Part shown: positions 7,248-43,018 of the stretch, piece by piece | How the letters are laid out: the number at the start of each line of letters is the position of its first letter | Position numbering within the stretch: the stretch's first letter is position 1 | Assembly (NCBI GenBank): GCA_001821395.1 | Contig: MHLM01000004.1 | Location: 32,001 to 96,000, forward strand | Direction: 5' to 3' | Length of the DNA stretch: 64,000 nucleotides | Origin: Candidatus Lloydbacteria bacterium RIFCSPHIGHO2_02_FULL_50_18 | GTDB taxonomy: Bacteria > Patescibacteriota > Minisyncoccia > Phycocordibacterales > UBA6899 | Translations under genes and position numbers: made by a program | Notes under the pieces: generated by a model | Seen by the model: only the letters and a program-made list of their open reading frames with translations | Told to the model about the DNA's origin: nothing | Databases searched by the model: none

Positions 7248-8993
7248 ATGAGCTTTCCTCTATTTTTGGCACAAAAAGGATTGTTCCGCGAAGATGATAT
7301 TCCTGAATTGACGAAGGAGGCTGAAAAAGCGCTCGGAGGCATCGACGAGGTGCTTTCTCGCGGTGGTATGAGCGGAGATGATATTCTTACGCTCAAAAGT
7401 GAGTATTATGGAATGCCCGCTCGAACACTTGATGGCACCAAGATTCCCGTTGATGTGCTGAAGTATATTCCTGAAGATTCCGCACGACATTATCAGGTCG
7501 CCCCACTTTCGGTGGAAAATCAGATCCTCGAGATAGGTATCGTCGACCCTGATATGACGCAGGCGCGTGATGCCGTGCAATTCATCGCTGCGAAGCTCGG
7601 AATGCCTTTTAAATTCTTCCTCATTACGCAGACCGACTTCAATCAGATCCTTGTACAGTATCAAAATCTTTCGGGTGAGGTGGGAAAAGCGCTTTCCGAG
7701 CTGGGCACCGGAGAACATAAGGAGCTTACCGAGGCCTCGGCACAGGGTGATGTTTCAACGATCGACGAACATGCACGCGTTGATGTAAAAGGGGAGGAAT
7801 CAAGGATCGTTGAAGATGCACCGGTCACCAAAATCGTTGCCGTGATATTGAAACACGCCGTTGAGGGTAATGCGTCAGATGTGCATATCGAACATACGGG
7901 GGAGAAGGTCCGTGTGCGTTTTCGTGTCGATGGCGTCATGTATACCTCGCTTATTTTGCCCGTGAATGTCCATAGTGCCGTCGTTGCGCGCATCAAAATA
8001 TTGGCCCAGCTGAAATTGGACGAAAAGCGAAAGCCTCAGGATGGGCGCTTCTCTGCGCGGATGGATGACAAGAAAGTTGATTTCCGTGTCTCTACATTCC
8101 CAGCGTATTATGGCGAAAAGGTCGTGATGCGTATTCTGGATACCGGAAAGGGTGTAAAATCGCTCGATCAGATGGGTCTTTCCGCGGAGCATTTAAAGCT
8201 CTTGCGCGATGCGATCAGTACCCCGTACGGTCTTATTTTGGTGACGGGTCCGACCGGATCGGGAAAATCAACAACGCTGTATTCCATGCTGAACGAGCTT
8301 GATCGCGAAAAACGCAATGTGATCAGTCTTGAGGATCCGGTCGAGTACAATATCCCCGGAGTGAGCCAGTCACAAGTACGTCCCGAGATAGGGTATACCT
8401 TTGCGAGCGGACTTCGCTCGATCCTTCGTCAGGACCCCGATATCATCATGGTGGGAGAGATCCGCGATAAAGAGACTGCTCAGCTTGCGATACAGGCGGC
8501 ACTCACCGGGCATCTTGTGTTTTCGACGCTACATACGAACAACGCGGCAGGCGTCATTCCTCGTCTTATCGACATGGAAGTCGACCCATACCTCATCGCA
8601 CCAACCCTCATCATGGCGCTAGGTCAGCGACTGTTGCGTACGATGTGTCCCGAGTCGAAAAGCCCCGTACCGCTGACCGAAAGCATGAGATTGATGATCG
8701 AGAAGCAGCTTTCCGATCTCCCGAAGGAAGCACGCGACCTCATTACAATACCGGATCATGTATATGAAGCCGTCCCGTCTCCCTCGTGTCCGTCAGGAAC
8801 AAAGGGGCGCACGGCCGTATTTGAATTTTTGAAAATGGATCGAGATCTTGAGCATATTGTACTCACAAATCCTGTTGAGCAGGCGGTATATGAGGCGGCG
8901 CGGGCCAAGGGAATGCTTACTATGAAGGATGATGCCATTAAGAAGGCTTTTGAGGGCATAATTCCGTTCGAAGAGATCAACAACATCGTCTGA
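7248..8993 (+). CDS. pilB: type IV pilus assembly ATPase PilB (GspE family)
   Basis: N-terminal GSPII_E-N domain, Walker A GPTGSGKSTT and the His box VFSTLHTNNAAG; 581 aa. Confidence 0.9.
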   Translation: MSFPLFLAQKGLFREDDIPELTKEAEKALGGIDEVLSRGGMSGDDILTLKSEYYGMPARTLDGTKIPVDVLKYIPEDSARHYQVAPLSVENQILEIGIVDPDMTQARDAVQFIAAKLGMPFKFFLITQTDFNQILVQYQNLSGEVGKALSELGTGEHKELTEASAQGDVSTIDEHARVDVKGEESRIVEDAPVTKIVAVILKHAVEGNASDVHIEHTGEKVRVRFRVDGVMYTSLILPVNVHSAVVARIKILAQLKLDEKRKPQDGRFSARMDDKKVDFRVSTFPAYYGEKVVMRILDTGKGVKSLDQMGLSAEHLKLLRDAISTPYGLILVTGPTGSGKSTTLYSMLNELDREKRNVISLEDPVEYNIPGVSQSQVRPEIGYTFASGLRSILRQDPDIIMVGEIRDKETAQLAIQAALTGHLVFSTLHTNNAAGVIPRLIDMEVDPYLIAPTLIMALGQRLLRTMCPESKSPVPLTESMRLMIEKQLSDLPKEARDLITIPDHVYEAVPSPSCPSGTKGRTAVFEFLKMDRDLEHIVLTNPVEQAVYEAARAKGMLTMKDDAIKKAFEGIIPFEEINNIV

Positions 8994-9116
8994 ACTTTGT
9001 TTTTGGCGCATTGCTCGGCCTTCCCTTGGCAGGATTGGAAGCAGTATAACCCATACAGCTTCTCAATCACTGCCGCAGTCCAGACCTTCGCACTGCATCC
9101 AAAAACAAAGTTCAGA
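8992..9116. repeat. 17-bp perfect inverted repeat enclosing a ~90-nt loop, immediately after the pilB stop
   Basis: CTGAACTTTGTTTTTGG at 8992-9008 is exactly complementary to CCAAAAACAAAGTTCAG at 9100-9116. Confidence 0.7.
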
Positions 9117-9271
9117 TATTGCTCGGATATGAGCTTTTCCCGCACCTTATGATGCACCCACTTGCAGAGACGGGTCGAAAATCGCGCTACGCGCGGTCTC
9201 AGGACGGGTTGATTATTCCCTATGGTTATGAGTTGTATGAAAAGAGAGAAGTCATGATATTATAAACGCAT

Positions 9272-9687: not shown

Positions 9688-10758
9688 ATGACCCAAGCTG
9701 AGTATAAAAAAGAACTAGAGGATCTCGTGCTGACGGTTATCCATGAAGGCGCTTCCGACCTGCATCTCGTTGTGGGTCGCCACCCGACGATCCGTGTTTC
9801 CGGAGAATTGATCCCGCTGGTCAAAAAACCACTACTCACACCCGAAGTGACGGAGGGATTGATAAGGGAATTGCTTACCGAAGAGATCTTCGTCAAATTC
9901 AAGCAGGATAAGGAGGTAGACTTTTCATTCTCTTTCGGTAAGGAGGCGCGTTTCCGCGGAAACGGTTTTTTTCAAAAAGGTACGATCGCAGTGGCACTCC
10001 GTCTCATTCCGAAGAAGATCAAAACTCTTCAGGAGCTTGCTTTGCCTCCGGTCTTGGAAATGTTCACCAAGCGAAAGCAAGGATTCTTTTTGGTCGTCGG
10101 TCCGGTTGGGCAGGGAAAATCGACCACACTTGCCGCAATGATCGAAATGATCAATCGCGAGCGTGCAGAGAACATCATCACCATCGAGGATCCGATCGAG
10201 TACGTGTTCACACCTGATCGTTCGATCATCAGTCAGCGTGAAGTGCATTTTGACACGAAGGATTTTCAGATCGCGTTGCATGCATGTTTTCGAGAGGACA
10301 TCGACATCATCTTGATCGGTGAAATGCGAGGACTTGAAACGATCTCGACGGCAGTGACCGCTGCTGAGACGGGGCATATGGTATTTTCGACGCTCCATAC
10401 CAACAATGCGTCACAAACGATCGACCGCATTATCGACTCATTTCCTCCTGAGCAGCAAGACCAGATCCGTGTCCAGCTTGCTGGTTCGCTCGCGGGAATA
10501 TTCTCACAACGTCTCGTTCCACGCATCTCCGGCGGTCTCGTTCCGGCATATGAACTCTTGATCAACAACAATGCAGTGGCCAACTTGATCCGTGAGCGTC
10601 GTACGCACGAGATACCGATGGTCATCGAGACGGGAATGGAGCTCGGCATGATCGATATGAACCGATCACTCGCGGAGCTCGTACGCGCAGGGGAGATCAC
10701 GGCGGAGAATGCGTATTTGCACTCCTTCAATCCGCGGTCACTCGAGCGAATGATCTAA
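9688..10758 (+). CDS. pilT: twitching-motility ATPase PilT
   Basis: Walker A GPVGQGKSTT, MVFSTLHTNNA and the PilT C-terminal AIRNLIRE-like motif (VANLIRERRTHEI); 356 aa. Confidence 0.9.
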   Translation: MTQAEYKKELEDLVLTVIHEGASDLHLVVGRHPTIRVSGELIPLVKKPLLTPEVTEGLIRELLTEEIFVKFKQDKEVDFSFSFGKEARFRGNGFFQKGTIAVALRLIPKKIKTLQELALPPVLEMFTKRKQGFFLVVGPVGQGKSTTLAAMIEMINRERAENIITIEDPIEYVFTPDRSIISQREVHFDTKDFQIALHACFREDIDIILIGEMRGLETISTAVTAAETGHMVFSTLHTNNASQTIDRIIDSFPPEQQDQIRVQLAGSLAGIFSQRLVPRISGGLVPAYELLINNNAVANLIRERRTHEIPMVIETGMELGMIDMNRSLAELVRAGEITAENAYLHSFNPRSLERMI

Positions 10759-10771
10759 CCATGACTTTCAT

Positions 10772-10875
10772 TTTTCGCGCCTCACTTTGTTACGGGGCCC
10801 CAGCGACTCGGTCAACATATATGAATATGTCTTCCTTGTCGCTTTCCCCGCGCCTCGTGACGCATCGAAAAATGA
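10772..10875. repeat. intergenic repeat A, copy 1 (about 93% identical to 35327-35440)
   Basis: TTTTCGCGCCTCACTTTGTT...CCCCAGCGACTCGGTCAACATATATGAATATGTCTTCCTTGTCGCTTTCCCCGCGCCTCGTGA(C/T)GCATCGAAAA. Both copies start within 15 nt after an ATPase-gene stop codon (pilT here; ftsE for copy 2). Confidence 0.8.
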
Positions 10876-11276
10876 AAGTCATGAAGGGTGTCGTTGTTCG
10901 ACGCCTCGCCCTGTATCAAAAAATAGGCCTCAGGTCTTATGTCGTGGGTCCGACAAACGTACTTTGAGTACGTCTGCTCGGACACCACTTCCTTGACGCC
11001 TCGTATTGCATCAGAAACCACGTCGAATTTGCATCTAATGCTCAACGCCTCGTGACGTATCGAAAAATGGAAGTGCTCTTGTGGCGCCTTGAGTACTGAA
11101 TTTTAGCAGTACGCTTATGGTATATCAAAAAATATTACTTCATATCGTTGATTGCTCGAATGTACTCCGAATATGTCTATCGGATATCGCCGCGTAAGGA
11201 GCCACCCTTCTTTGGTGGTTCGTTTTTATAAAGATGCTGTATAATATACTGGTCAGCTAAGTGACATCAACCACAT

Positions 11277-12488
11277 ATGCTTTATCGTTACAAATCCATT
11301 GATCAGTTAAGTGGAGAGGAGAAGTCCGGCACCATCGATGCGGCCTCAGTGGATATCGCGATAGGCTCGCTTCAGCGTCGAAAGTTGATCATCGTCTCTA
11401 TCGTCCCCGCAGACAACGTTCCGTTTTATGAAAAGATGATGTCGATCGGGCAAAAGGTCGCATATCGCGATGTCGTTATTTTGTCGCGCCAGATAGCGAC
11501 ACTCTTCAATGCGCAGGTCTCTGCGCTCCGTGTTTTTCAGCTACTCTCCCTTGAGGCGGAAAATGATATTCTCAAAGTACGCCTGAATGAGGTGACCGAA
11601 GATATTCAGGGCGGAATGTCTCTTTCCGATGCGCTCCATCGACATTCCGATATTTTCTCTGATTTTTATGTAAACATGGTGCGTGCGGGTGAGGAGTCAG
11701 GTAATCTTTCCAATACATTCAACTACCTCGCCGATTATCTTGATCGTTCGTTTGAACTTGTGTCAAAAACAAAGAATGCCCTGATCTACCCCGCTTTTGT
11801 TGTGGTGGTATTCATTATCGTGATGATCTTGATGCTGGTGATCGTCATACCAAAACTGTCAGCGATCATTACGGAGACCGGTAAAGAGCTTCCTTTTTAT
11901 ACAAAGGTCACGATCGGCGCCTCGAACTTTCTTATCCACTATGGCTTGTTCCTGCTCGTTATCGTGGTTATCGGAGTCTTTGCGCTCCTTCGTTTTATGA
12001 GCACTGATAAGGGAAAGGAAGCACTTTCTCAATTTTCCCTTACTCTTCCCTATATTGGCGATTTATACAAGAAGCTCTATCTCGCGCGTATCGCCGACAA
12101 CTTGAACACGATGCTTACATCGGGTATCGCCGTGGTGCGCGCGGTCGAGATAGCGGCTTCTGTCGTGGGGAATAAGGTCTATGAATCCATCCTGCTCGAG
12201 GTCTCGTCCGATGTGCGAACAGGTGTGTCGCTGTCACAGGCGATGAGTAAGCACCCAAAGGAGATTCCGGGGATCATGGTGCAGATGATCAAGGTGGGTG
12301 AGGAAACGGGAGAGGTGGGAAATATTCTTGAAACACTTTCAAAATTCTATAAACGAGAGGTTGATAACGCGGTTGAAACACTGATATCACTCATCGAGCC
12401 TGCAATGATCATCATGCTTGGACTTGGTGTGGGAGGGCTTCTGGTTTCGGTGCTGATGCCTATTTACGACATCGCCGGCTCCTTCTAG
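11277..12488 (+). CDS. pilC: type IV pilus inner-membrane platform protein PilC (GspF family)
   Basis: Duplicated GspF-type domains with conserved TM segments; 403 aa. Confidence 0.85.
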   Translation: MLYRYKSIDQLSGEEKSGTIDAASVDIAIGSLQRRKLIIVSIVPADNVPFYEKMMSIGQKVAYRDVVILSRQIATLFNAQVSALRVFQLLSLEAENDILKVRLNEVTEDIQGGMSLSDALHRHSDIFSDFYVNMVRAGEESGNLSNTFNYLADYLDRSFELVSKTKNALIYPAFVVVVFIIVMILMLVIVIPKLSAIITETGKELPFYTKVTIGASNFLIHYGLFLLVIVVIGVFALLRFMSTDKGKEALSQFSLTLPYIGDLYKKLYLARIADNLNTMLTSGIAVVRAVEIAASVVGNKVYESILLEVSSDVRTGVSLSQAMSKHPKEIPGIMVQMIKVGEETGEVGNILETLSKFYKREVDNAVETLISLIEPAMIIMLGLGVGGLLVSVLMPIYDIAGSF

Positions 12489-12745
12489 TCAAGAGTTCGC
12501 TAAGGTCGCGTCTACGTCGTTATCTGCGGAACGAACCCCGCTCGTCGTACTCCGAGTACGCCTCGGGAGGTGTCGTTCCTTGATGCCTCGTATCCACGAT
12601 CTTATCGGACTTTTGGGTGCGGCCTGCTCGCGGACCCTGTCACTTGGTCAACATATTTGCGTCAGCATCTTCCTTTTTTCCATTTTGGAACGACTTCCGT
12701 TGTTCTTTTTCTTAGGTTTGGTTAAAAAGACTCATATCGCATATA

Positions 12746-12766: not shown

Positions 12767-13630
12767 ATGAATGCTATTGAAATTAAAAAATTATCAAAAG
12801 AGTATTATACGGTGGTTGGCACCGTGGCTGCGGTGCATGAGCTTTCGCTTACCGTTCCGAGCGGAAGCGTCTTCGGATTTCTCGGTCCGAATGGGGCCGG
12901 TAAGACGACGGCGATGAAAATGTTCGTCGGACTCACGGAGCCATCGTCGGGAGAGATCACTATCGCCGGGGGAAGCCCGAAAGACATTCTTACGAGGAAG
13001 CGCATCGGTTTTATGCCGGAGTCGCCCTCATTCTACGCGTATCTTTCGGGAAGAGAGTTTCTCGAACTGGTCGCTGCGATCTTTGGAACGGCAAATGCGA
13101 CCTCGCGTATCAATGAAGTGCTGAAAGAGGTCGACTTGGTCGGGAGGGAAGGGCGACAGATCCGCACGTACTCAAAGGGGATGCTGCAGCGGCTGGGCCT
13201 TGCACAGGCCATCCTTAATGATCCGGATATTCTCTTCCTTGATGAACCGCTTGACGGACTTGATCCGCTGGGGCGCGCGGAGATCAAGCAGGTCATCATT
13301 GCGCTCAAGGAGCGAGGGAAGACCGTTTTTCTCAATTCACACATCCTCGCCGATGTCGCAGAGATCTGTGATCAGGTCGGGATCATCGACAAGGGGTGTC
13401 TCATCGCTTGTGAGAGTCCTGAGATACTGTCAAAGGGCTATCGTGATCTTGAGGATGCATTTGTGCATATTATAAAGAACAAACGAGATATTTCAGGTGT
13501 CGGACATAAGCAAATGCAAATGGATGAAATTCGAGACGTGGGGGATGAGACGAGGAAGACGTATTCTGATACGTTGACTGAGTCTCGGGGGCCCCACAAC
13601 GAAGAAGTTCGCCATTTACATAAGTCCTAA
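12767..13630 (+). CDS. ABC transporter ATP-binding protein
   Basis: Walker A GPNGAGKTT, a signature-like YSKGMLQRLGLAQA, and Walker B ILFLDEP. Confidence 0.8.
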   Translation: MNAIEIKKLSKEYYTVVGTVAAVHELSLTVPSGSVFGFLGPNGAGKTTAMKMFVGLTEPSSGEITIAGGSPKDILTRKRIGFMPESPSFYAYLSGREFLELVAAIFGTANATSRINEVLKEVDLVGREGRQIRTYSKGMLQRLGLAQAILNDPDILFLDEPLDGLDPLGRAEIKQVIIALKERGKTVFLNSHILADVAEICDQVGIIDKGCLIACESPEILSKGYRDLEDAFVHIIKNKRDISGVGHKQMQMDEIRDVGDETRKTYSDTLTESRGPHNEEVRHLHKS

Positions 13631-13635
13631 TTATT

Positions 13636-14406
13636 ATGATGAACAGGATCCTCGCCATTGCTCGTAATACCTTTCGCGAAACGCTGCGTGACCGCATCTT
13701 GTGGTCGGCGCTCGTCGTCATGCTCGCGCTCATCGCATTTTCGCTTTTTGTCGGTTCGGTTTCATTGGGACAAGACCAGCGCATGATCATTGATTTTGGC
13801 TTGACCGCGATCTATCTGCTGCAGATCTTCGTTGCTATCTTCATCGGCTCGATGCTCATGTACCGCGAGGTTGACCGTAAGACATTCTTTCTGATCATTC
13901 CGAAGCCGATCCATCGGGAAGAGATCATTCTGGGAAAATGCCTTGGTCTCACCGCTACCACTATCGCGGTAACGGCCCTTTCGACCCTCGCACTTTTTTG
14001 TATCCTGTTCATAAGGGGGATTCATGGCGCATACCTTGCGATCCTCCTCTCGGTCCTCCTCTCGGTGTTCGAATCGGTCATTCTGATACTTCTTTCGATC
14101 TTGCTGTCGGGGCTAACCTCCCCGATCCTTGCCGCCATCTATACTATTGCCTTCTTTTTGATCGGTCATTCAAGCGACATCCTACGGACACTGATCGCTG
14201 CGCAAGAGTCGGCGGTGTCAGGTTTTTTCTTGAGTACGGCGTATTACGTCATGCCGAATCTCGAGAAATTCAACATTCGTAATGAGGTGGTGTATGGCGT
14301 GCTTCCCGATACGCGCGGTATTGCCGTTTCGGTTCTCTATGCGTTTTGCTATTCCGTCTTTCTTTTCCTTCTTGCGCGTGCCATGTTTAATAAAAAAGAG
14401 TTTTAA
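13636..14406 (+). CDS. ABC-2 family transporter permease
   Basis: Six predicted TM segments; directly downstream of the ABC ATPase. Confidence 0.6.
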   Translation: MMNRILAIARNTFRETLRDRILWSALVVMLALIAFSLFVGSVSLGQDQRMIIDFGLTAIYLLQIFVAIFIGSMLMYREVDRKTFFLIIPKPIHREEIILGKCLGLTATTIAVTALSTLALFCILFIRGIHGAYLAILLSVLLSVFESVILILLSILLSGLTSPILAAIYTIAFFLIGHSSDILRTLIAAQESAVSGFFLSTAYYVMPNLEKFNIRNEVVYGVLPDTRGIAVSVLYAFCYSVFLFLLARAMFNKKEF

Positions 14407-14472
14407 TTTCTTGCGACAAAGAGGTGATCCCTTAGCTTTGGAAGGTGTCACCTCAGAAATACCACCACTCTA

Positions 14473-15309
14473 ATGATCTTACATCCCCGCACATTCAACA
14501 TCGTCATGGTACTCGCCCCCCTCTTGTTTCTAGGCGCGTCCATCGGGGCGCAGCTTCGGTATGACGCGGTGCTGATGGAGCATTTTAACCTCCGGGAGCC
14601 GATGCATCGTTTCATCATGCCCGCTCCGGTCGTTCGCTATTTTGCTTTTGGATTTGAGAATATCCTCGCCGATTATTATTGGGTTTCCGCCATTCAGGAT
14701 CTCAACAAATGGGATAGACGTGATACATATTATCCGGAATATTTTCGTATCATTGCGACGCTCGACCCAAAATTTGAATACCCGTATACTTTTGCCGCAT
14801 TGACCATTCCGTCAAAAAAAAATCCCGAGTCGCTTACTTGGCTTGCTGATATTAGTGAGCGGGGGATGGTGGCACTCCCGTCAAGTTGGCAGATACCGTT
14901 CTACACCGGCTTAGAGTTTCACACCGTCGGGAGATTATACGAGCGAGCTGCGTATTATCTTGGTATCGCTTCTGCTATAGAATCAAGTCCGGAAGCGGCA
15001 CGTACCGCATATGGACTTTTTCTGCTTCATTCATCGACTGACTACGAGCGGTCACGCGCACTGTTCACTGCGATCTATGAAACTACCGATAGTCAGGAGA
15101 CCAAAAAGATAGCGCAAGAACGTATCATATTGCTCGATTTTATCGAAGCTGTTGATAGGGCATCGGAACTATATAAAGATCGCCATTTGATATATCCCGA
15201 ATCCCTTGAAGTGCTGGCAAGCGATGGGTTGATCCAAGTCCCTCCTGACCTCATCAAGCGATTTCCCATTGAGATAGACCTTCAAACTGGAAAAGCCTCT
15301 TTGTTGTAG
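14473..15309 (+). CDS. hypothetical protein with an N-terminal signal/TM segment
   Basis: 278-aa ORF with an N-terminal hydrophobic helix and no recognisable motifs. Confidence 0.4.
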   Translation: MILHPRTFNIVMVLAPLLFLGASIGAQLRYDAVLMEHFNLREPMHRFIMPAPVVRYFAFGFENILADYYWVSAIQDLNKWDRRDTYYPEYFRIIATLDPKFEYPYTFAALTIPSKKNPESLTWLADISERGMVALPSSWQIPFYTGLEFHTVGRLYERAAYYLGIASAIESSPEAARTAYGLFLLHSSTDYERSRALFTAIYETTDSQETKKIAQERIILLDFIEAVDRASELYKDRHLIYPESLEVLASDGLIQVPPDLIKRFPIEIDLQTGKASLL

Positions 15310-25111: not shown

Positions 25112-25185
25112 GCGGTGGTAGCTCAATTGGTTAGAGCACCCGCCTGTCACGTGGGAGGTTGCGAGTTCGAGTCTCGTCCGCCGCG
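25112..25185 (+). tRNA. tRNA-Asp(GUC)
   Basis: Acceptor GCGGTGG/CCGCCGC, anticodon loop CTGTCAC, T-arm GCGAG-TTCGAGT-CTCGT, G73; CCA not encoded. Confidence 0.85.
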
Positions 25186-25193
25186 CAAATACA

Positions 25194-25219
25194 AAAAAAC
25201 TGCTTTTGCAGTTTTTTTG
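25194..25219 (+). terminator. rho-independent terminator after tRNA-Asp
   Basis: AAAAAAACTGC-tttt-GCAGTTTTTTT. Confidence 0.7.
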
Positions 25220-25234
25220 TGTTTGCACGGTGGA

Positions 25235-25392
25235 GGAAGCATCTGCATGCTTCCGACGAGACTCGAACTCGCCATCACCATGATGAGTACTTCCAATTTC
25301 ATACTCTCTGTAGTCGTTGAAATTTAGGTCGCTCCATAAAGCCTGCGATGACGATCTCGAATAAGCTTCGCTTCTCGTCCGTCCCGTAAATA
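25235..25392 (+). repeat. tRNA-3'-end mimic mini-element, instance 3 (downstream of tRNA-Asp)
   Basis: Hairpin GGAAGCAT-CTGC-ATGCTTCC; GACGAGACTCGAA, the inverted copy of the tRNA-Asp T-loop/T-stem; a ~105-nt insert ending ACGATCTCGAATA; then TCTCGTCCGTCCCGTAAATAC, an 85% copy of the last 21 nt of tRNA-Asp including the downstream AAATAC. Confidence 0.5.
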
Positions 25393-26610: not shown

Positions 26611-26746
26611 AGTAAATAGTTTCGCTCAGTTGGTAAGCCAAGTCCGCAAAGCCAGACACTGGGTTGGCTTTTTCGTAGCAGTGTCGCCCACCGGCGACGC
26701 ACCACACAACTCGTCTTCTCCGCTACGCTGCGAAAACGATCTCGAA

Positions 26747-26800
26747 TAGAGCATCTCACTCGTAACGAGAAGGTCCGCAGTTCGATCCTGCGAGGCGGCT
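26747..26800 (+). repeat. direct duplicate of the 3' 54 nt of tRNA-Thr(CGU), an attR-like scar
   Basis: AGAGCATCTCACTCGTAACGAGAAGGTCCGCAGTTCGATCCTGCGAGGCGGCTCT is identical to 26557-26609 except the terminal CT versus CCA. It is preceded by ACGATCTCGAAT, the same module end seen at 25356. Confidence 0.8.
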
Positions 26801-26923
26801 CTAGAAAAAGAACGTAGTATTTTTTTGTCCGCCTCAAGAAAATAACTGCTTGTTTTCTGGCAGGATCGAATAGCGAAGCTAAAAAGCCGCGCATATGCGC
26901 GGCTTTGTGTACTCACTCATTTC

Positions 26924-33297: not shown

Positions 33298-33353
33298 GCG
33301 TCGCTCCTTTTTCTTGTCTGTGCCTATTCAACCCGTGTTTGCGTATTGAGTCA

Positions 33354-34280
33354 ATGAGCGCGGAATTCCTCCGCTTTGCTATACTGTTTATTATGATCGA
33401 ACAAGAAGAACCGAATGCCAAGCGCATTAAAGAATTGGAGGACGCCATGCAAGCGGCTGATTTTTGGGTGAATAAAGAGAAGGCGCAGGCGGAGATCCGT
33501 GAGTTGCAGGAATTGAAGAATGTTGCCGAGGGAGGAGGAAGATATGACAAGGCCAATGCAATCATCACCATCTTCTCCGGTGCCGGAGGAGATGACTCTG
33601 AAGATTTCTCCGCTATGCTTGTGCGGATGTATTTCAAGTATTGTGAGCGGAGAGGGTGGGGCTATGAGGTCCTGCATGAGAACGAGAACGATCATGGCGG
33701 GTATCGCAATATCACCTTTGAGGTGAGGGGGAGCGCCTCATACGGAGAGCTGAAGAACGAGTCCGGCGTGCATCGTCTTGTGCGTATCTCACCGTTCAAC
33801 GCGAATGCGAAGCGTCACACGTCGTTCTCGATGGTTGAGGTGATCCCGAAATTCAAGAAAGGGGAGATCGAGGCACTTCCTGAGGGCGAAGTGCGTTTTG
33901 AATATTCGCGCTCGGGCGGTGCGGGTGGACAGAATGTGAACAAGCGCGAGACCGCGGTGCGCGCGATACATGAGCCGACGGGGCTTGCTGTGCACTGTTC
34001 GACGGGGCGTTCCCAGTTACATAATCGTGAAATGGCTCTTGAATTGCTGACGGCAAAAGTATTTCACTTACGTGAGTCACTCACCAATGCGGAAAAGGAG
34101 AAGATGTATGTCTCGAAAACGACAAAAGTCGAATGGGGAAATCAGATACGTTCGTACGTCCTCCATCCGTACAAAATGGTGAAGGATCATCGTACCGATG
34201 TGGAGACGTCAAAGGTCGACGCCGTCCTCGAAGACGGTGAGATCGACGAGTTCATCAAAGCAGAGAGGGATCTCAAGTAA
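33354..34280 (+). CDS. prfB: peptide chain release factor 2, in one continuous frame
   Basis: GGQ motif RSGGAGGQNVNK, SPF tripeptide (RISPFNANAK) and the RF2-type domain order. The ORF is open from 33339 (TTG); ATG candidates lie at 33354 and 33393. Domain 1 is about 50 aa shorter than in E. coli RF2. Confidence 0.85.
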   Translation: MSAEFLRFAILFIMIEQEEPNAKRIKELEDAMQAADFWVNKEKAQAEIRELQELKNVAEGGGRYDKANAIITIFSGAGGDDSEDFSAMLVRMYFKYCERRGWGYEVLHENENDHGGYRNITFEVRGSASYGELKNESGVHRLVRISPFNANAKRHTSFSMVEVIPKFKKGEIEALPEGEVRFEYSRSGGAGGQNVNKRETAVRAIHEPTGLAVHCSTGRSQLHNREMALELLTAKVFHLRESLTNAEKEKMYVSKTTKVEWGNQIRSYVLHPYKMVKDHRTDVETSKVDAVLEDGEIDEFIKAERDLK

Positions 34281-34282
34281 AA

Positions 34283-34375
34283 GGTGTTAAACCCCGGGGC
34301 AAGCCCTGGACTCGCAATCTGCTCGCAAAGCCTCGCGCGAGTCCGCGGCAGAGCCGCGGGGTATTAAACCTTTTT
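34283..34375 (+). other. highly structured ~95-nt element (nested stem-loops) immediately after the prfB stop
   Basis: Outer arms AAGGTGTTAAACCCCGGGG and CCGCGGGGTATTAAACCTT are near-complementary; inner arms GGACTCGC and GCGAGTCC. Confidence 0.4.
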
Positions 34376-34394
34376 AGCTCTCCTCGGCACCACG

Positions 34395-34449
34395 GAGAGT
34401 ACTTCCATTTTTCTAAGTGGATGACCACTAAGAAAAATTGGTCGCTCGG
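34395..34449 (-). repeat. hairpin repeat family M2, copy 2
   Basis: GAGAGTACTTCCATTTTTCTAAGTGG-atga-CCACTAAGAAAAATTGGTCGCTCGG. Confidence 0.6.
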
Positions 34450-34638: not shown

Positions 34639-35325
34639 ATGTCGCTAATGATCTATTTCGATAATGTGACGAAACTATACTCTGACCACGCCGCGGTGTC
34701 GGACGTTACCTTTGGCATTGAGTCGGGGGAATTCCTCTCGATTGTAGGGCATTCGGGTGCCGGGAAAACGTCGCTGTTGCGCCTTCTTTTGGTAGAAGAT
34801 AGGCCGACGTCAGGTGCCGTTTTTTTTGAAAAAACCGATATCCATCGTATCAAGGCCGCTCATGTGCCGGAATATCGCAGACGCATCGGTACTGTTTTTC
34901 AGGATTTTCGGCTGTTTCCCAATAAGACTGCGTATGAGAATATTGCGTTCGCACTTGAGGCTGCCGGACGTACCGATGAGGAGATCCGCTCCGATGTTCC
35001 GCAGGTGCTCGAGCTTGTCGATCTTGCGTCAAAAGCGCTGCATTTTCCGCACGAGCTCTCCGGAGGGGAGAAGCAACGTGTCGCCATCGCGCGTGCTATC
35101 ATTTCGCAACCCGATGTACTGATCGCCGACGAGCCGACGGGAAATCTCGACCCGGTGAATACCTACGACATCATTCAGATATTGAAGAAGATCAATGACA
35201 TGGGAACAACGATCATTTTGACGACGCACAACAAGGGGATCATCGACGCGCTGAAGAAGCGGGTGGTGACGATGGAGAATGGGAAGGTTATACGTGACGA
35301 TGCTCACGGCAAATATATTCTCTAA
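34639..35325 (+). CDS. ftsE: cell division ATP-binding protein FtsE
   Basis: Walker A GHSGAGKTS, ABC signature LSGGEKQRVAIARA, Walker B VLIADEPTGNLD; 228 aa. Confidence 0.85.
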   Translation: MSLMIYFDNVTKLYSDHAAVSDVTFGIESGEFLSIVGHSGAGKTSLLRLLLVEDRPTSGAVFFEKTDIHRIKAAHVPEYRRRIGTVFQDFRLFPNKTAYENIAFALEAAGRTDEEIRSDVPQVLELVDLASKALHFPHELSGGEKQRVAIARAIISQPDVLIADEPTGNLDPVNTYDIIQILKKINDMGTTIILTTHNKGIIDALKKRVVTMENGKVIRDDAHGKYIL

Positions 35326-35326
35326 T

Positions 35327-35440
35327 ATTTTCGCGCCTCACTTTGTTGTAAGGCAGCGCACTTATGCCCCAGCGACTCGGTCAACATATATGAATATGTC
35401 TTCCTTGTCGCTTTCCCCGCGCCTCGTGATGCATCGAAAA
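35327..35440. repeat. intergenic repeat A, copy 2
   Basis: About 93% identical to 10772-10875; begins 2 nt after the ftsE stop. Confidence 0.8.
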
Positions 35441-35549
35441 TATTCGAGAATATTTCCTGCATGGCTTCGCTCTTTATCCAAAATCTTAAAGAATGATACA
35501 TAGAACTTCAACCAACACTGACACTAGAGGACGCGTTGCGCCTCGTGAT

Positions 35550-35600
35550 GTGACCAATTTTTCTCAGCGGTACTCCGCTTTAGAAAAATGAAATGCCCTC
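35550..35600 (+). repeat. hairpin repeat family M2, copy 3
   Basis: GTGACCAATTTTTCTCAGCGG-tact-CCGCTTTAGAAAAATGAAATGCC. It is directly preceded by GCGCCTCGTGATG, a member of the GCCTCGT motif family. Confidence 0.6.
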
Positions 35601-35694
35601 TGTGGTACATCAAAAATATTTCGGCCGGCATATTGACATAATCAGTTATTTTCATAGGATGAGTATTGGAAGAGTTTGAAAAGGAGAATTGACC

Positions 35695-35895
35695 ATGAAA
35701 CTGAAGCAGGGTTCGGTAAGGCGTGCATGCGCTCTTTTTGCGACTTTTTGTGCCGCAGTGGCAATGACCGGACTTATCATTTGGGGTTTAGACTTGCTGG
35801 TGGTGAAGGCCGTCGAGATCGCTCCGACATTCATTCCGGTCGAGCTCTATCCTCCGCATCATGCTTGTGTTGACATCATTCCTCTATGCCCTTAG
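35695..35895 (+). CDS. small predicted membrane/secreted protein (66 aa)
   Basis: Strong SD AAGGAG 8 nt upstream of the ATG; N-terminal basic residues then a hydrophobic stretch ALFATFCAAVAMTGLIIWGLDLLVV. Confidence 0.3.
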   Translation: MKLKQGSVRRACALFATFCAAVAMTGLIIWGLDLLVVKAVEIAPTFIPVELYPPHHACVDIIPLCP

Positions 35896-36178
35896 ACTCG
35901 TTAAAGGAACTGTTCTCGGACCGAACCAGAAGGGGAGGATAATCCTCGACAGGGTAAACCGACAGAGGGAAACGAAAAGATCTCAAGCGGCATGCTCGCG
36001 TGGATGCACGCGTAATGCCAAGGGCTTAGCCGTAACGGGGCGCGCCAGCACCTGACATCCCGTAGGGGACGAGGGTTTGAGAGATCAGCCATAAAACGGG
36101 TGCCTTATCATCCGTGGCAAATCGCCGGAGAATAGTTCTGCCATTTCAAACGTCGCATACTCGTGCGGCGTTTTTTCT
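35896..36178 (+). other. ~280-nt hairpin-rich non-coding stretch ending in a terminator-like hairpin; candidate structured RNA or long 3' UTR
   Basis: Multiple short GC hairpins (CGCGTG-gat-GCACGCG, CCG-taa-CGG, CCC-gta-GGG) and a terminal CGTCGCAtactcgTGCGGCG + T6 at about 36152-36178. Confidence 0.25.
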
Positions 36179-36253
36179 TTTCCGAGGACCACCCAAACAT
36201 GGTGAATTTCTTTATTTCGGGATTCTCGTGATTCGGTCGCCATGCATGAGTGA

Positions 36254-37240
36254 ATGGCCTCACCTGTCCACTTCGCTTTTCTGGTCAATTCATGCGAAAA
36301 TACCCTCATGGGAATGTTCACTAGTACGCGCCGCATCGTGAGAGCGGGATTCATTAATTTCTGGAGGAATGCTGTTGTCTCCTTATCGGCCATCTTTGTC
36401 ATGAGCATCGCGCTCTTTGTGGTTGGTTCCACGATCCTTTTTTCAAACTTTCTTGATTCAACCCTAGAGGAGATCAAGAACAAGGTTGATGTGAACGTAT
36501 ATTTTAATCCTGACGCGCAGGAATCCGATATCTTTTTGATGAAGCGCTCTCTCGAAGAGCTTCCGGAGGTCAAGTCGATAGAATATATTTCTCGCGATCA
36601 GGCAATCGCGAATTTCAAAGCACGTCACAGTAATGACTACCTTATGACTCAGGCACTCGATGAGCTGATCGATAATCCACTCGGGGCAATTTTGAACATC
36701 AAGGCGAAAGACACGTCTCAATATGAAGCGATCGCCAAGCGCATCAAGAGCGATCAGGAGACGGCCGGTCCCGGAGGGAATCTGATCTATAGTGTTAATT
36801 TCAGCAAGAACAAAGTGGTCATCGACAAATTGACCGATATCACGAATGGGGTTGAAAAAGTATCTTTTGCCATACTGCTCGTACTGATCGCAATCGCGAT
36901 CGTGATCACCTTCAATACAATCCGCTTGGCGATCTATGTTTCCCGCGAAGAGATCGCTATCATGCGTCTCGTCGGGGCCAATAATTCGTTCGTGCGAGGA
37001 CCGTTCATCGTCGAGGGCATCATGTACGGCATGGTTGCGGCGATCGTTGCGACCGCACTGCTTTATCCGGTGACACATTGGCTTCGTGATGCGACACAGA
37101 ATTTCTATGGCGGAGTCGACTTCTTCTTCTCCTATTACATCAATCATCTCAATCAGATCTTCGCCATTTTGCTGGTTGGCGGAGTGTTCCTAGGCGCAGT
37201 TTCATCGTTCCTTGCGGTGCGGAGATACTTAAAAGTTTAA
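36254..37240 (+). CDS. ftsX: cell division permease FtsX
   Basis: N-terminal cytoplasmic segment, TM1, large extracytoplasmic domain and three C-terminal TM helices. The true start is probably near 36308 (MGMFTSTRRIVRAG). Confidence 0.8.
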   Translation: MASPVHFAFLVNSCENTLMGMFTSTRRIVRAGFINFWRNAVVSLSAIFVMSIALFVVGSTILFSNFLDSTLEEIKNKVDVNVYFNPDAQESDIFLMKRSLEELPEVKSIEYISRDQAIANFKARHSNDYLMTQALDELIDNPLGAILNIKAKDTSQYEAIAKRIKSDQETAGPGGNLIYSVNFSKNKVVIDKLTDITNGVEKVSFAILLVLIAIAIVITFNTIRLAIYVSREEIAIMRLVGANNSFVRGPFIVEGIMYGMVAAIVATALLYPVTHWLRDATQNFYGGVDFFFSYYINHLNQIFAILLVGGVFLGAVSSFLAVRRYLKV

Positions 37241-39234: not shown

Positions 39235-41130
39235 ATGATTCAAGAGACCGCTCTTACTATTATGAAAACGGGGGCGAATGTATTCCTCACGGGGGAGCCC
39301 GGGAGCGGTAAAACGCATACCGTAAACGCATATATCCGCTACCTCCGCGAGCACAACGTCAATCCTTCGATCACTGCTTCAACGGGTATCGCCGCGACGC
39401 ACGTCGGCGGGATGACCATTCATTCATGGAGCGGTATCGGCATCAAGCGTGCGCTCACCGAATATGACCTCGATGCGCTGTCCTCGAACGAAGGACTTGT
39501 GAAGCGTATCGCCAATGCAAAGGTGCTTATCATCGATGAGATATCGATGCTCGACGGCAACACGCTGGTCATGGTGGAGGCGGTCACGCGAACGCTTCGT
39601 CGCAAGCACGAGCCTTTCGGCGGACTGCAGATAATTTTCGTCGGCGATTTCTTTCAGCTGCCTCCCATCGCGGACCGGGCAAGCGGTGTTCGTGCGCAGT
39701 TTTGTTTCGAATCAACAGCATGGCGAGTGGCGAATCCCATAGTGTGCTATCTCTCCGAGCAGCACCGTCAGGAAGACACCGCGTTTCTCTCTACGCTTGG
39801 CGCCATTCGCCGCGGAGAGCTCGAGGATAGCGTCTTTGAATATATCGGCGAGAGGCACGTGCTCCCAGGTGAGCATCCACACGACATTCCGCAGCTCTAT
39901 ACGCACAACATTGATGTCGACAAAAAGAATACGGAAGAGCTCGCAAAACTTGAAACGGAAGAAAAGGTCTTTCTCATGAGCACGAAGGGGACGAGCAATC
40001 GCGTGGAGCAGCTGATCAAGGGCTGTCTTTCACCCGAGGAACTGGTGTTGAAAGAAGGCGCATCGGTGATGTTCACCAAAAATAATTTTGAAAACGGCTA
40101 TGTGAACGGCACATTGGGGACGGTGGTGGGATTCGACGAGGACAATGGTTTTCCAATTGTTGAAACATCGGGCGGAGAAAATATTACCGCGCTTCCTTCC
40201 GAATGGGCCGTTGATGATTCTGGGAAAGTGCTCGCCACCATCACTCAGGTACCGCTCCGACTCGCGTGGGCTATTACCGTGCACAAGAGCCAGGGGATGA
40301 GCCTTGATGCCGCGACGATGGATCTCTCGCGCGCATTTGAATACGGGCAAGGGTATGTGGCACTCTCTCGTGTACGCGCATTCTCGGGATTGCACATCCT
40401 CGGCATCAATCAGCGCGCATTCGAGGTGCACCCTCTTGTGCTTGAGCGCGACCTCGCGTTTCACGAGCGTTCGGATGAAGCGGAGGCGGGGTTTCTCGAC
40501 ATGTCGGACGCCGACCTCCGGAAGTTACACGAGAACTTTTTACTCGCCATTGGAGGGAATCTGGCGAAAAAAGAAATCATTGCCAAGGCATTCGGTGTTC
40601 CAAAACTGAGTACGTATGAAGAAACGCTCGCGCTCCTCAGCCCCGGGATGACGCTCGCCGCGATTGCCAAGCGTCGGGACGTGACCGAGGGGACGATCGT
40701 GGGCCATATCGAAGAACTCGCGCTACTCGGAAAGCTCCCGTCGATAGACATCGCCGCCTTTGCCGAGCTTCCTGCGTCGGTGGTGAAGGAGATAACGCAA
40801 ACGATCGAGACGATCGGAGGAGAATTTCTCAAGCCGCTCTACCTTGAATTGGATGAACGTTATTCTTATGAAACGATCCGTCTTGTTCGATTCGGAGCGG
40901 GCATTGCTCCGAAGCAAAAAGACGCCGTCGTTGCGAAAAAAGAAAAGGTAAAAAAGGTGTCACATGAAAAACCCGCAAAGCTCGGAGCGAAGTGGGGAAA
41001 GGAAGAGGAAGAACGACTCACAAAAATGTTCAAAGAGGGAAAGAAGACGAAGGACATCGCACAGACACTTGAACGGCAGTCGGGGGGTATCCGTGCTCGT
41101 TTGAAGAAGCTGGGGCTGATAAAAAAATAG
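39235..41130 (+). CDS. Pif1-family (RecD-like SF1B) ATP-dependent DNA helicase with a C-terminal HTH-like tail
   Basis: Walker A GEPGSGKTH, the Pif1 signature ITASTGIAATHVGGMTIHSWSGIG, Walker B LIIDEISM, FQLPPI and AITVHKSQGMSLD; the C-terminal region is basic with an HTH_40-like shape. Confidence 0.8.
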   Translation: MIQETALTIMKTGANVFLTGEPGSGKTHTVNAYIRYLREHNVNPSITASTGIAATHVGGMTIHSWSGIGIKRALTEYDLDALSSNEGLVKRIANAKVLIIDEISMLDGNTLVMVEAVTRTLRRKHEPFGGLQIIFVGDFFQLPPIADRASGVRAQFCFESTAWRVANPIVCYLSEQHRQEDTAFLSTLGAIRRGELEDSVFEYIGERHVLPGEHPHDIPQLYTHNIDVDKKNTEELAKLETEEKVFLMSTKGTSNRVEQLIKGCLSPEELVLKEGASVMFTKNNFENGYVNGTLGTVVGFDEDNGFPIVETSGGENITALPSEWAVDDSGKVLATITQVPLRLAWAITVHKSQGMSLDAATMDLSRAFEYGQGYVALSRVRAFSGLHILGINQRAFEVHPLVLERDLAFHERSDEAEAGFLDMSDADLRKLHENFLLAIGGNLAKKEIIAKAFGVPKLSTYEETLALLSPGMTLAAIAKRRDVTEGTIVGHIEELALLGKLPSIDIAAFAELPASVVKEITQTIETIGGEFLKPLYLELDERYSYETIRLVRFGAGIAPKQKDAVVAKKEKVKKVSHEKPAKLGAKWGKEEEERLTKMFKEGKKTKDIAQTLERQSGGIRARLKKLGLIKK

Positions 41131-41186: not shown

Positions 41187-41220
41187 ACGGTAGACATACA
41201 TTTCATTGAAAGAAAATATC

Positions 41221-42905: not shown

Positions 42906-43018
42906 TGAACGCCAGTCGGGAGGTATTCGCTCTCGTTTGAAAAAGCTGGGGCTGATAAAAAAAAGACATACATTTGAAGGCAAGGAGGTATTTGACAAGT
43001 GCGATAAACTACTGCAGG
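42906..43018 (+). repeat. direct repeat R, including an in-frame pseudo-fragment of the helicase C-terminus
   Basis: Would encode NERQSGGIRSRLKKLGLIKK against LERQSGGIRARLKKLGLIKK in the helicase. Four of five nucleotide differences in that stretch are synonymous. The 34-nt promoter-like core is identical. Confidence 0.8.

Follow-up and report, generated by a model that had tools for sequence, protein, structure and literature searches.

Repeats at the pilT–pilC and ftsE–ftsX junctions

The window, i.e., the whole stretch of 64,000 nt analysed here, derives from Candidatus Lloydbacteria bacterium RIFCSPHIGHO2_02_FULL_50_18 and contains pilB, pilT and pilC as well as ftsE and ftsX. The genes pilT (9688–10758) and pilC (11277–12488) are separated by 518 nt, exactly the spacing given in an earlier note on this DNA. 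For the ftsE–ftsX gap, which had been put at about 930 nt, we obtained about 930–980 nt: ftsE ends at 35325 and the open reading frame (ORF) of ftsX starts at 36254, with the true start near 36308 (homologues of ~309 aa, 95% of the query covered). The median spacer in the window is 64 nt according to a crude greedy gene call.

Both gaps contain the repeat that had been named repeat A. Its reported identity of 93% between the gaps was reproduced by aligning 10772–10875 with 35327–35440, where 97 of the 104 nt in copy 1 match and one 13-nt indel occurs; the core (10797–10871 versus 35366–35440) is 99% identical. All seven sites listed before for the GCCTCGT motif family exist, each within ~10 nt of its assigned position, namely CGCGCCTCG at 10849 and 35418, GAYGCCTCG at 10900, 10995 and 12582, and CGCCTCGT at 11046 and 35539. 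Likewise, the resemblance of 12540–12600 to 10930–10990 is apparent by eye, both segments holding a GTACTYYGAGTAC hairpin followed by CTTCCTTGAYGCCTCGTAT. The description of the gaps as repeat-filled is right with respect to their repeat content, but the ftsE–ftsX gap also has non-repeat sequence. The assignment of the repeats to regions after ATPase genes was too narrow, as copies are also located 3' of pilC in the window and 3' of pilM and a minor-pilin-like gene in relatives. Three copies were absent from the earlier note: 8987–9119, 12491–12615 as a whole unit, and 13503–13631 on the minus strand. The features are listed below, with scores from the covariance model R2; related loci fetched for comparison carry L numbers.

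8987–9119, plus strand: diverged copy at the pilB stop (41 bits, E 7e-7; inverted repeat I10)
10758–10886, plus strand: w1, copy 1 of repeat A, a type II variant (139.5 bits; fold z −6.6)
10887–10940, plus strand: P, 3' half of an older family element, aligning with the 3' half of the intact L042 element
10941–11020, plus strand: fragment Q, a hairpin around GTACTTTGAGTAC, then the 3' motif CTTCCTTGACGCCTCGTATTGCAT
11021–11090, plus strand: R, a hairpin remnant with 5' arm GAAACCACGTCGAAT, enclosing a truncated type II 3' arm
11199–11245, plus strand: terminator-like hairpin and T run (11199–11230) and TATAAT box (11240–11245), upstream of pilC
12491–12615, plus strand: diverged copy, 3 nt past the pilC stop (45.5 bits, E 7e-8; fold z −3.9)
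12629–12659, plus strand: decayed fragment like the repeat A core, GGACCCTGTCACTTGGTCAACATATTTG, 77% identical to 10793–10823 (group D10)
13503–13631, minus strand: w3, a canonical type I copy, reversed (123.8 bits)
35314–35455, plus strand: w2, copy 2 of repeat A, with a 13-nt insertion (115.9 bits; fold z −6.4)
35539–35550, plus strand: second copy of the 12-nt CGCCTCGTGATG; L015, L028 and L041 lack the 119 nt between the two
35548–35606, minus orientation relative to 2119–2176: hairpin of the unrelated repeat family C (35552–35606 is 82% identical to 2174–2120)
35633–36182, plus strand: non-repeat part of the ftsE–ftsX gap
35633–35660, plus strand: promoter-like site
35697–35897, plus strand: 66-aa ORF with an AAGGAG Shine-Dalgarno sequence
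35870–35898, plus strand: second promoter-like site
35906–36182, plus strand: conserved segment of ~275 nt with a terminator at its end

The copy at pilB folds at −61.9 kcal/mol (z −9.6), and the pilB TGA (8991–8993) is located inside its perfect 18-bp outer stem, TCTGAACTTTGTTTTTGG / CCAAAAACAAAGTTCAGA; L042 and L043 have copies at the same position. At the pilT–pilC junction, w1 begins with the final base of the pilT stop codon and is closed by a perfect 18-bp outer stem, CATGACTTTCATTTTTCG / CGAAAAATGAAAGTCATG. It is missing in the closest relative, L049, and in L042, where an older element occupies the site. Fragment P, which also aligns with L049 585–715 (75.6 bits), retains the GACGCCTCGC motif at 10900 and an old outer-stem arm, ATCAAAAAATAGGCCTCAGG. 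Fragment Q shows a weak R2 match (10964–11081, 15 bits) and has a counterpart at L049 ~716–765. The type II arm inside R (11046–11074, CGCCTCGTGACGTATCGAAAAATGGAAGT) is 93% identical to 10851–10879 (repeat group D4), and L049 retains the full R hairpin, GAAACCGCGTCGAAT...ATTCGACGCGGTTTC, around the same type II fragment. The block AAAGATGCTGTATAAT in the last part of the gap recurs in conserved form in L042 and L049.

The copy behind pilC, which includes the segment 12540–12600 and carries the GATGCCTCGT motif at 12582, has same-position copies with differing outer stems in L042, L043, L044 and L049. No significant covariance-model match was obtained for the decayed fragment at 12629–12659. 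In w2, the outer stem ATATTCTCTAATATTTTCG / CGAAAATATTCGAGAATAT includes the ftsE stop codon and the two sense codons before it, and in the hairpins at the ftsE site of L046, L047 and L048 the stop codon TGA, TAG or TAA is matched in the 3' arm. Within the non-repeat part of the gap, L046 holds a 62-aa ORF and the same conserved segment as the window at 35906–36182.

A family of palindromic repeats and its mobility

Repeat A is a member of a family of ~125-nt imperfect palindromes found in Candidatus Lloydbacteria and related Parcubacteria assemblies. The unit is bounded by an outer stem of 15–19 bp, whose complementary arm lies at the 3' end. Inside this stem, the 5' inner segment ends in CTTYGTTG, a long inner hairpin with the apex GTCAAC-(short hairpin)-GTCTTCC occupies the middle, and the 3' inner segment starts with CGYCTCG. 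The latter is the conserved motif seen before as GCCTCGT, and each occurrence therefore marks a copy or fragment of the family.

In an exact-pattern scan, family copies were detected in nine CPR contigs from eight assemblies and in 13 of the 21 metagenome contigs matched. As only one to two exact-pattern matches occur per assembly, recent bursts were small. Across 311 kb of related DNA, the covariance models R1 and R2 together yielded 41 non-redundant matches. Within the window, R2 gives five significant copies, of which four follow pilB, pilT, pilC and ftsE and one is reversed. When 17 copies were aligned with MAFFT, 91.5% of the cells were paired, in comparison to 31–56% in slid controls, and 24 of 36 pairs are changed on both sides, a number reached in none of 500 shuffles. 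With 31 copies, 34 of the 36 pairs covary. The hairpin of the family is real and backed by strong covariation.

Rfam gave no match in either gap at E values of up to 10, and only tRNAs passed the gathering score in the window. Searches of the repeat element against phage, plasmid and IMG/VR sequences were without a match, and in the literature we found no description of MITEs or palindromic repeats in CPR, Patescibacteria or Lloydbacteria.

Mobile repeats had been among the suggestions made for the gaps, and this suggestion was supported: the family is dispersed, carries terminal inverted repeats and, in other genomes, 5-bp target duplications, and its copies are present or absent between close relatives. 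The best-preserved type I copies of other genomes have the termini TAGGACTTACGCAAATGG...CCATTTGCGTAAGTCCTA, which form 18-nt terminal inverted repeats. Flanking direct repeats of 5 bp were found in L031 (GATTA), L032 (TATGA), L029 (TTGAA) and L037 (TTAAG), and together these properties make the copies MITE-like. L035 contains a 112-nt element (1331–1442) with the same TAGGACTTACGC termini, another interior and the duplication TTAAA. Also in L035, the flanking repeat of 3055–3279 matches at four of five positions, and one A element has a nested hairpin. Among the three repeat A-type window copies w1, w2 and w3, none has a target duplication, so that their MITE membership rests on homology to type I.

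In the more distant relatives L043 and L044, pilT and pilC are only 18 and 28 nt apart, and no family element lies between them; the distance is 83 nt in L045, 251 nt in L042 and 413 nt in L049. Neither w1 nor w3 has a counterpart in L049. The ftsE–ftsX spacer is 137–179 nt in L047 and L048, and L048 has only a 63-nt deletion derivative after ftsE. Young copies also occupy other places, namely a divergent promoter region in L037 and, in L032, the stretch from a ribosome-binding site to a start codon. Three features of MITEs, namely short non-coding elements with terminal inverted repeats, a duplication of fixed 5-bp length and dispersed, polymorphic copies, are present in the family.

The repeats also reach into proteins. 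A type I element plus its duplication amounts to 129 nt or 43 codons with one open frame per orientation, and a copy can thus be read through when it lies in a gene. The ORF of an ABC ATPase (12767–13630) reads the reversed w3 in frame as its last 43 codons and stop codon. The protein is 96% identical to its L049 counterpart over residues 1–240 and then continues for 47 residues versus five in L049, where the end of the gene gives no covariance-model match. In L032, the insertion duplicates the ATG of the downstream gene in frame and adds an N-terminal extension of 43 codons (129 nt). The tail of the L042 ABC ATPase was considered as a decayed copy and rejected, since it gives no model match and the closer relative L049 has an uninterrupted gene of 245 aa.

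No gene flanked by the type I termini and no transposase was found in the window or the fetched loci, and a Pfam scan of 60 window ORFs, which left out fourteen already annotated genes, detected no recombinase-type domain. A lone terminus-like site in L029 was examined as a candidate autonomous element; the ORF whose 5' end contains it is methyltransferase-like and not a transposase.

Taken together, we consider it probable that both gaps are lineage-specific build-ups of ~125-nt palindromic interspersed repeats, at least one subfamily of which, type I, behaves as a MITE. Type I would represent a non-autonomous transposon (MITE) that inserts with a 5-bp duplication of an A+T-rich target, presumably moved by a transposase encoded elsewhere. 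Older copies may have been reshuffled by recombination between shared motifs; candidate examples are the 119-nt deletion between the CGCCTCGTGATG repeats and element P, half of which w1 would have replaced. Recent copying or gene conversion would explain why the cores of w1 and w2 are 99% identical next to unrelated outer stems.

Stop codons, gene sense and a possible role in mRNA

In 28 of 41 copies, the 5' end lies at most 17 nt from a same-strand stop codon. Of the independent positions next to a stop, about 15 have the copy in the gene's sense direction and only one has it reversed, and where a contig carries genes on both strands (L011, L012) the copies still turn with their gene. Most of the 28 copies have the stop codon in their 5' arm, often with the final one to four sense codons, and a complementary stretch in the 3' arm. 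After ftsE, pilB and pilC, orthologous hairpins with compensated changes are retained across protein identities of 78–88%. A plain model of selfish DNA does not predict the sense bias, the stop codon in a paired stem or the compensated orthologous hairpins.

Under the mobile-element reading, copies may persist mainly just after stop codons because other sites in a compact genome would be harmful. Perfect stems that incorporate native coding sequence could owe their persistence to selection acting on the transcript or, alternatively, to a templated fold-back correction that restores the palindrome.

A tentative alternative, to which we give distinctly less credence, holds that the hairpins, whatever their origin, are mainly host-functional parts of mRNA 3' ends that would shield the message upstream from 3' exonucleases, mark sites of processing between cistrons or slow ribosome release and thereby tune the gene upstream. 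The sense bias and the stop-codon position fit this proposal, as do the copies at the same gene ends across that range of protein identity and the changes among TAA, TAG and TGA that are matched in the 3' arm. The orientation, the stop-codon position and the compensated orthologous stems would also suit the regulatory RNAs suggested before. Additional support for host-functional 3' ends comes from one sense-strand-specific U.G pair conserved in 16 of 17 copies and from old, diverged copies that retain perfect outer stems of 15–19 bp. However, selection at the RNA level would be expected to favour G-U pairs, and among the non-Watson-Crick pairs of 30 copies G-U (29) is not favoured over A-C (38). 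This balance means that no strand can be named from the pairing; the minus strand of w1 and w2 folds better than the plus strand. Further arguments against a mainly host-functional element are L043 and L044, which do without it in their 18–28 nt between pilT and pilC, L048 with its deletion derivative after ftsE, and the young copies in other contexts (L037, L032). A crude scan for 11-nt inverted repeats at stop codons gave three of 70 window genes versus one to five in controls, and thus there is no general habit of stop-codon hairpins beyond the family.

More specifically, the hairpins that clamp stop codons might be a host signal in which a dedicated protein reads the unpaired CTTYGTTG, GTCAAC...GTCTTCC and CGYCTCG motifs and the stem couples termination to mRNA processing, mRNA stability or expression of the next cistron. 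We regard this as unlikely. Mobile type I copies would then spread the signal, and in a more remote version the two variable inner segments would serve as guides of an RNA-guided system.

Known systems and meaning of the family

Such a guide function has a precedent in the stem-loop TIGR-Tas arrays of CPR bacteria, which combine variable palindromic stems with short conserved box motifs and whose units have two short variable segments and an extended loop hairpin (PMC12045711; bioRxiv 10.64898/2026.09.09.750476). The family shares with them locus-specific, variable palindromic stems, adjoining conserved short motifs at the stem base, two variable inner segments of 7–9 nt, an inner hairpin and the ability to lie in frame within genes, and on the 5' side, though not on the 3' side, the CGA-10 nt-TG of type I is compatible with one relaxed box C / box D pattern. 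It nevertheless appears very improbable that the units are guide-RNA-like stem-loops of TIGR-Tas or another RNA-guided system. No Nop or Tas domain was detected in the 60 window ORFs by Pfam, and three unknown ORFs are without a PDB relative. The units are dispersed at gene ends instead of forming a tandem array beside an effector gene such as tas, the would-be spacers do not vary between type I copies from different genomes, the box pattern fails on the 3' side, and terminal inverted repeats and target duplications are present. We therefore rejected a TIGR-Tas stem-loop array.

That the repeats encode a small protein or protein module is suggested by one open frame per orientation, by the copy that forms the ABC ATPase tail and by the recurring peptide M(D/E)EIRGAG..TRKTYSY.LTES.GPRNEEVRHL, but we give this reading next to no weight. 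The peptide of the ATPase frame had 11 matches among 1.84 billion representatives, seven of them ORFs of 37–89 aa, and in six of the 11 the match begins at residue 1; it is not a protein family, in line with the earlier view that the short ORFs merely reflect repeated DNA. Moreover, residues change where the stems covary (the apical ACG, ATG and AAG, coding for T, M and K, track the partner base), and w1 and w2 lack a start codon in that frame.

GCCTCGT as a DNA uptake signal, suggested before in view of the competence machinery and here considered in connection with the competence and type IV pilus genes, is equally far-fetched. The pilus genes and a TfoX_N-domain gene in the window, and the location of all gap copies of the motif on one strand, speak in its favour. 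On the scale of the window, however, the 7-mer occurs 12 times versus 7.4 expected, a count reached in ten of 100 shuffles; it is thus not over-represented window-wide and not an uptake signal. Enrichment is local: six of the 12 lie in the gaps, which make up ~1.7 kb, all on the plus strand and inside repeat units, and five of the seven occurrences of the 8-mer CGCCTCGT (2.4 expected) are in the two gaps. Outside the gaps, the 7-mer is at chance frequency without spreading through coding sequence, and every gap occurrence is the inner motif of the 125-nt unit.

The mobile palindromic repeats proposed here can be set beside several known systems. The Correia elements of Neisseria are MITEs with terminal inverted repeats and target duplications. 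With MITEs of this kind the family shares a length of ~125 nt, 18-nt terminal inverted repeats, a fixed 5-bp duplication, several copies per genome, insertion polymorphism, nested insertions, lack of coding capacity and co-transcription with neighbouring genes. It differs in that no partner transposase was found, that the hairpin covers the whole length and not the ends alone, that outer stems of older copies are locus-specific and include native coding sequence, and in its strong sense bias at stop codons.

ERIC or IRU sequences of enterobacteria are imperfect palindromes of ~127 bp that fold end to end and reside in transcribed intergenic regions. The end-to-end palindrome, the intergenic location, internal deletion and insertion variants and compensatory substitutions are common to both, whereas ERIC belongs to a different phylum, has no sequence relation to the family, neither through Rfam nor through other similarity, and occurs in both orientations; to our knowledge, it has not been described as enclosing stop codons. 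Rickettsia palindromic elements (RPE) have a length and open frames that permit in-frame insertion into protein genes. The family likewise occurs in a small-genome bacterium and is present in frame and without stops in protein genes (w3 in the ATPase tail and the N-terminal extension in L032), but most copies lie just outside coding sequence, target duplications occur and no sequence relation exists.

The REP/BIME elements of E. coli are palindromes of 20–40 nt with a conserved 5' tetranucleotide and RAYT transposase-like genes, and REP elements within ~15 nt of stop codons have been reported to influence mRNA stability and how the gene upstream is translated. Both are extragenic palindromes in 3' untranslated regions, many of them a few nt from a stop codon. 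Unlike REP/BIME, the family has a composite unit of ~125 nt with the stop codon itself paired within the stem, and Pfam detected no Y1-transposase domain in the 60 window ORFs scanned. The family is a new sequence within an already known class of bacterial repeats.

Bacteria of the Candidate Phyla Radiation are usually described as streamlined and poor in mobile elements. Here, two operon junctions have grown from tens of bases to 0.5–1 kb through a repeat family, which has also rewritten the C-terminus of an ABC ATPase and appears still to be reshuffled between close relatives. In annotations, units of the family lead to spurious short ORFs and to altered gene ends; metagenome assemblies are likely to break at them, and they can serve as markers for strain-level population genetics. 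Finally, the stop codons in compensated stems and the sense bias hint at a possible influence of the repeats on mRNA fate or translation termination, in organisms so far beyond genetic manipulation.

A palindromic repeat family at operon junctions

The separation of 518 nt described between pilT and pilC was confirmed. ftsE ends at 35325, and ftsX starts at 36254 by its ORF or near 36308 going by homologues of ~309 aa. The median spacer across the window is 64 nt according to a crude gene call. PilC of the window is identical to a protein named from Candidatus Lloydbacteria bacterium RIFCSPHIGHO2_01_FULL, and the window DNA is also present in Rifle groundwater metagenomes.

The two copies of repeat A agree at 97 positions across the 104 nt of copy 1, with one 13-nt indel; this is the 93% identity given in the earlier note, and a 75-nt core is 99% identical. 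By short-word self-comparison, a third copy (78% identical, minus strand, 13523-13604) was found within the 3' end of the ABC ATPase ORF 12767-13630. All three copies form a long imperfect hairpin from end to end, with z of -4.7 to -11 against shuffles. Their outer stems differ in sequence and retain complementarity, and the inner stems of the third copy carry compensatory changes, e.g., ACATAT/ATATGT to ACGTAT/ATACGT.

Nine CPR contigs showed clear relatives in a scan for the pattern GACTCRGTCAAC-N10-14-GTCTTCCT; they come from eight assemblies, of which five are named Lloydbacteria, two are labelled just 'bacterium' and the others are Patescibacteria UBA6023 and Parcubacteria GW2011_GWA2_47_7. 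Of 21 metagenome contigs matched, 13 likewise carry clear relatives; the remaining matches look like chance. RNAalifold predicted 36 pairs on a MAFFT alignment of 17 copies, with changes on both sides in 24 pairs and 91.5% of cells paired. None of 500 shuffles reached any pairing measure, and slid controls were 31-56% paired. Aligning 31 copies to the model gave covariation at 34 of the 36 pairs. The unit consists of five parts:

Outer stem
5' inner segment, CTTYGTTG at its end
Inner hairpin, apex GTCAAC-hairpin-GTCTTCC
3' inner segment, CGYCTCG at its start
3' arm of the outer stem

The seven GCCTCGT sites reported earlier all exist within ~10 nt of their positions. This motif is the CGYCTCG of the unit, and all seven occurrences lie at that place of a full, diverged or truncated unit. 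Run on the window with filters off, the covariance model R2 returned five significant copies.

Significant R2 copies and adjoining genes in the window
8987-9119, plus strand, after pilB, 41 bits
9688-10758, pilT
10758-10886, plus strand, after pilT, 139.5 bits
11277-12488, pilC
12491-12615, plus strand, after pilC, 45.5 bits
13503-13631, minus strand, in the ABC ATPase 3' end, 123.8 bits
35314-35455, plus strand, after ftsE, 115.9 bits

The observations are best explained by a new palindromic, partly mobile interspersed repeat family, by analogy comparable to MITE, ERIC and RPE, whose members have built up at two operon junctions and undergone recombination there. This kind of element is already known; our literature search on palindromic repeats and MITEs found no description for this lineage.

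Mobility and recent expansion

The suggestion of mobile repeats held up: the best-preserved copies (type I), with termini TAGGACTTACGCAAATGG...CCATTTGCGTAAGTCCTA, are flanked by 5-bp direct repeats in four related contigs (GATTA in L031, TATGA in L032, TTGAA in L029 and TTAAG in L037). Contig L035 carries a 112-nt element that shares these 12-nt termini, is unrelated in its interior and shows the duplication TTAAA; an A element with a second hairpin nested within lies on the same contig. The insertion in L032 led to a second copy of the downstream gene's start codon; as element and duplication together span 129 nt, the reading frame continues through it. Another short hairpin repeat, CCTTTTGGAGATTTCGGAAAATCTCTCAAAAGG, occurs in two metagenome contigs (L021 231-356, L035 3052-3281), either next to family A units or inside them, and has replaced one unit arm in L021.

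Orthologous sites differ in length. The pilT-pilC spacer ranges from 18 nt (L043) and 28 nt (L044) through 83 nt (L045, a different hairpin of 80 nt) and 251 nt (L042) to 413 nt (L049, the closest relative). An older family member lies at the pilT stop in L042 (68.9 bits) and L049 (75.6 bits), and in the window its 5' half is replaced by repeat A copy 1. The L049 ABC ATPase is 96% identical to that of the window over residues 1-240 and stops five residues on, with no model match at its 3' end; the window protein has 47 further residues, of which the element encodes 43. At ftsE, 119 nt between two CGCCTCGTGATG repeats are absent from L015, L028 and L041 (Parcubacteria GW2011_GWA2_47_7 contigs). 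Between ftsE and ftsX, L047 and L048 have 137-179 nt and L046 has ~830 nt; the small ORF and conserved segment of the window's gap recur in L046. From these comparisons, the long gaps are recent, lineage-specific expansions.

A three-gene module (12767-15309; ABC ATPase, ABC-2 permease and a 278-aa unknown) separates pilC from the pilin gene in the window, L042 and L049, and is missing at that position in L043, L044 and L045.

Gap contents, further repeats and rejected readings

The remainder of the pilT-pilC gap also holds a terminator-like site and a conserved TATAAT box, besides the following:

10887-10940, 3' half of the older unit
10941-11020, further fragment
11021-11090, remnant of a hairpin around a truncated 3' arm

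The ftsE-ftsX gap additionally contains a hairpin from an unrelated repeat family, a promoter-like site and a conserved ~275-nt segment ending in a terminator. A 66-aa ORF (35697-35897) has an AAGGAG Shine-Dalgarno sequence as well as a promoter-like site of its own and apparently encodes one transmembrane helix; a 62-aa ORF of like design lies at the same place in L046, and L047 and L048 have none. By sequence, 35870-36182 is a candidate small RNA gene, with a promoter-like TTGACA-17-TAGACT (35870-35898), a 5' end GGAACTGTTCTC pairing with GAGAATAGTTC close to the 3' end, a 3' arm that differs among relatives (GAGAATAGTTCT, GAGAACAGTTCC), a conserved hairpin of the GGCATGC...GCATGCC type and, at 36148-36180, an intrinsic terminator. 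The candidate gene is also conserved in L015, L028 and L041 and, in a shorter form, in L046; Rfam has no match to it.

Hairpins of a second repeat family, 'C' (CACCAYGNNGAGTACTTCCATTTTTCTAAG-variable apical hairpin-CTTAGAAAAATTGGTCGC), covary in their apical stems and are undetected by R2:

2119-2176, 25276-25340 and 34388-34445, window
35548-35606, minus strand, window
about 2335-2400, L049

The 3' halves of tRNA genes are duplicated close by (1530-2420, 25150-25340, 26720-26880), directly (1535-1613 and 2039-2117; 26726-26803, repeating the tRNA-Thr 3' half) or inverted (2328-2358 with 2384-2414; 25154-25178 with 25255-25279), so that long hairpins surround the 3' ends of tRNAs and terminators. 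A 58-nt direct repeat (41070-41127 and 42906-42963, 90% identical) flanks a BT1-family transporter gene (41206-42831), its first copy being the 3' end of a PIF1-like helicase gene. In L046, an SbmA/BacA gene directly follows the helicase, which suggests that the transporter gene was inserted with duplication of the junction.

TIGR-Tas stem-loop arrays, found in CPR bacteria (PMC12045711; bioRxiv 10.64898/2026.09.09.750476), superficially resemble family A units. However, type I inner segments are conserved, the units lie dispersed and carry target duplications, and Pfam showed no Nop or Tas, transposase, reverse transcriptase or integrase domains in 60 window ORFs, a set leaving out fourteen previously annotated genes; three unknown window ORFs had no PDB relative. 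The proposed uptake signal failed on counting, with 12 GCCTCGT seen against 7.4 expected, 10 of 100 shuffles as high, and a chance frequency outside the gaps. The protein reading was dropped as well: the peptide in the ABC ATPase frame had 11 matches among 1.84 billion representatives, seven being ORFs of 37-89 aa. Known RNA families (Rfam) and phage or plasmid origin (phage, plasmid and IMG/VR collections) were rejected for want of any match.

Stop codons, orientation and pairing

In 28 of 41 non-redundant copies, the 5' end of the model lies at most 17 nt from the stop codon of the same-strand upstream gene. After collapsing orthologous sites, ~15 independent positions are in sense orientation versus one reversed (the ABC ATPase copy), and in L011 and L012, which have genes on both strands, orientation follows the gene. 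Most of the 28 hold the stop codon inside the outer-stem 5' arm and its reverse complement in the 3' arm; the 5' arm often also takes in the last one to four sense codons.

Stop codon pairing in the outer stem
pilB: TGA/TCA in the window, TAA/TTA in L043
ftsE: TAG matched in L047, TGA in L046, TAA in L048
ftsE, window: TAA, one base short of a match
L012: cgaaTAAcg / cgTTAttcg

The same gene ends (pilM, pilB, pilC, ftsE and the last pilin-like gene) are occupied at 77-88% PilC or FtsX identity, and outer stems at these sites often pair without a mismatch over 15-19 bp despite diverged interiors. Of the non-Watson-Crick cells, G-U (29) are not commoner than A-C (38), so pairing is kept at the Watson-Crick level, as expected of a DNA palindrome or templated correction; one conserved U.G pair on the sense strand is the exception.

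The release-factor gene (33339-34280) ends in a TAA stop on which a ~100-nt hairpin begins (34278-34378; TAAAAGGTGTTAAACCCCGGGG...CCGCGGGGTATTAAACCTTTTTA; interior GACTCGC...GCGAGTC plus GCCTCG). This hairpin may be a very diverged relative, matching model R1 at 9 bits only.

Plain selfish DNA predicts neither the position at stop codons and their clamping within the stem, nor the sense bias, nor stems kept compensated over long times. The clamp, the bias and the compensated stems are the part worth pursuing.
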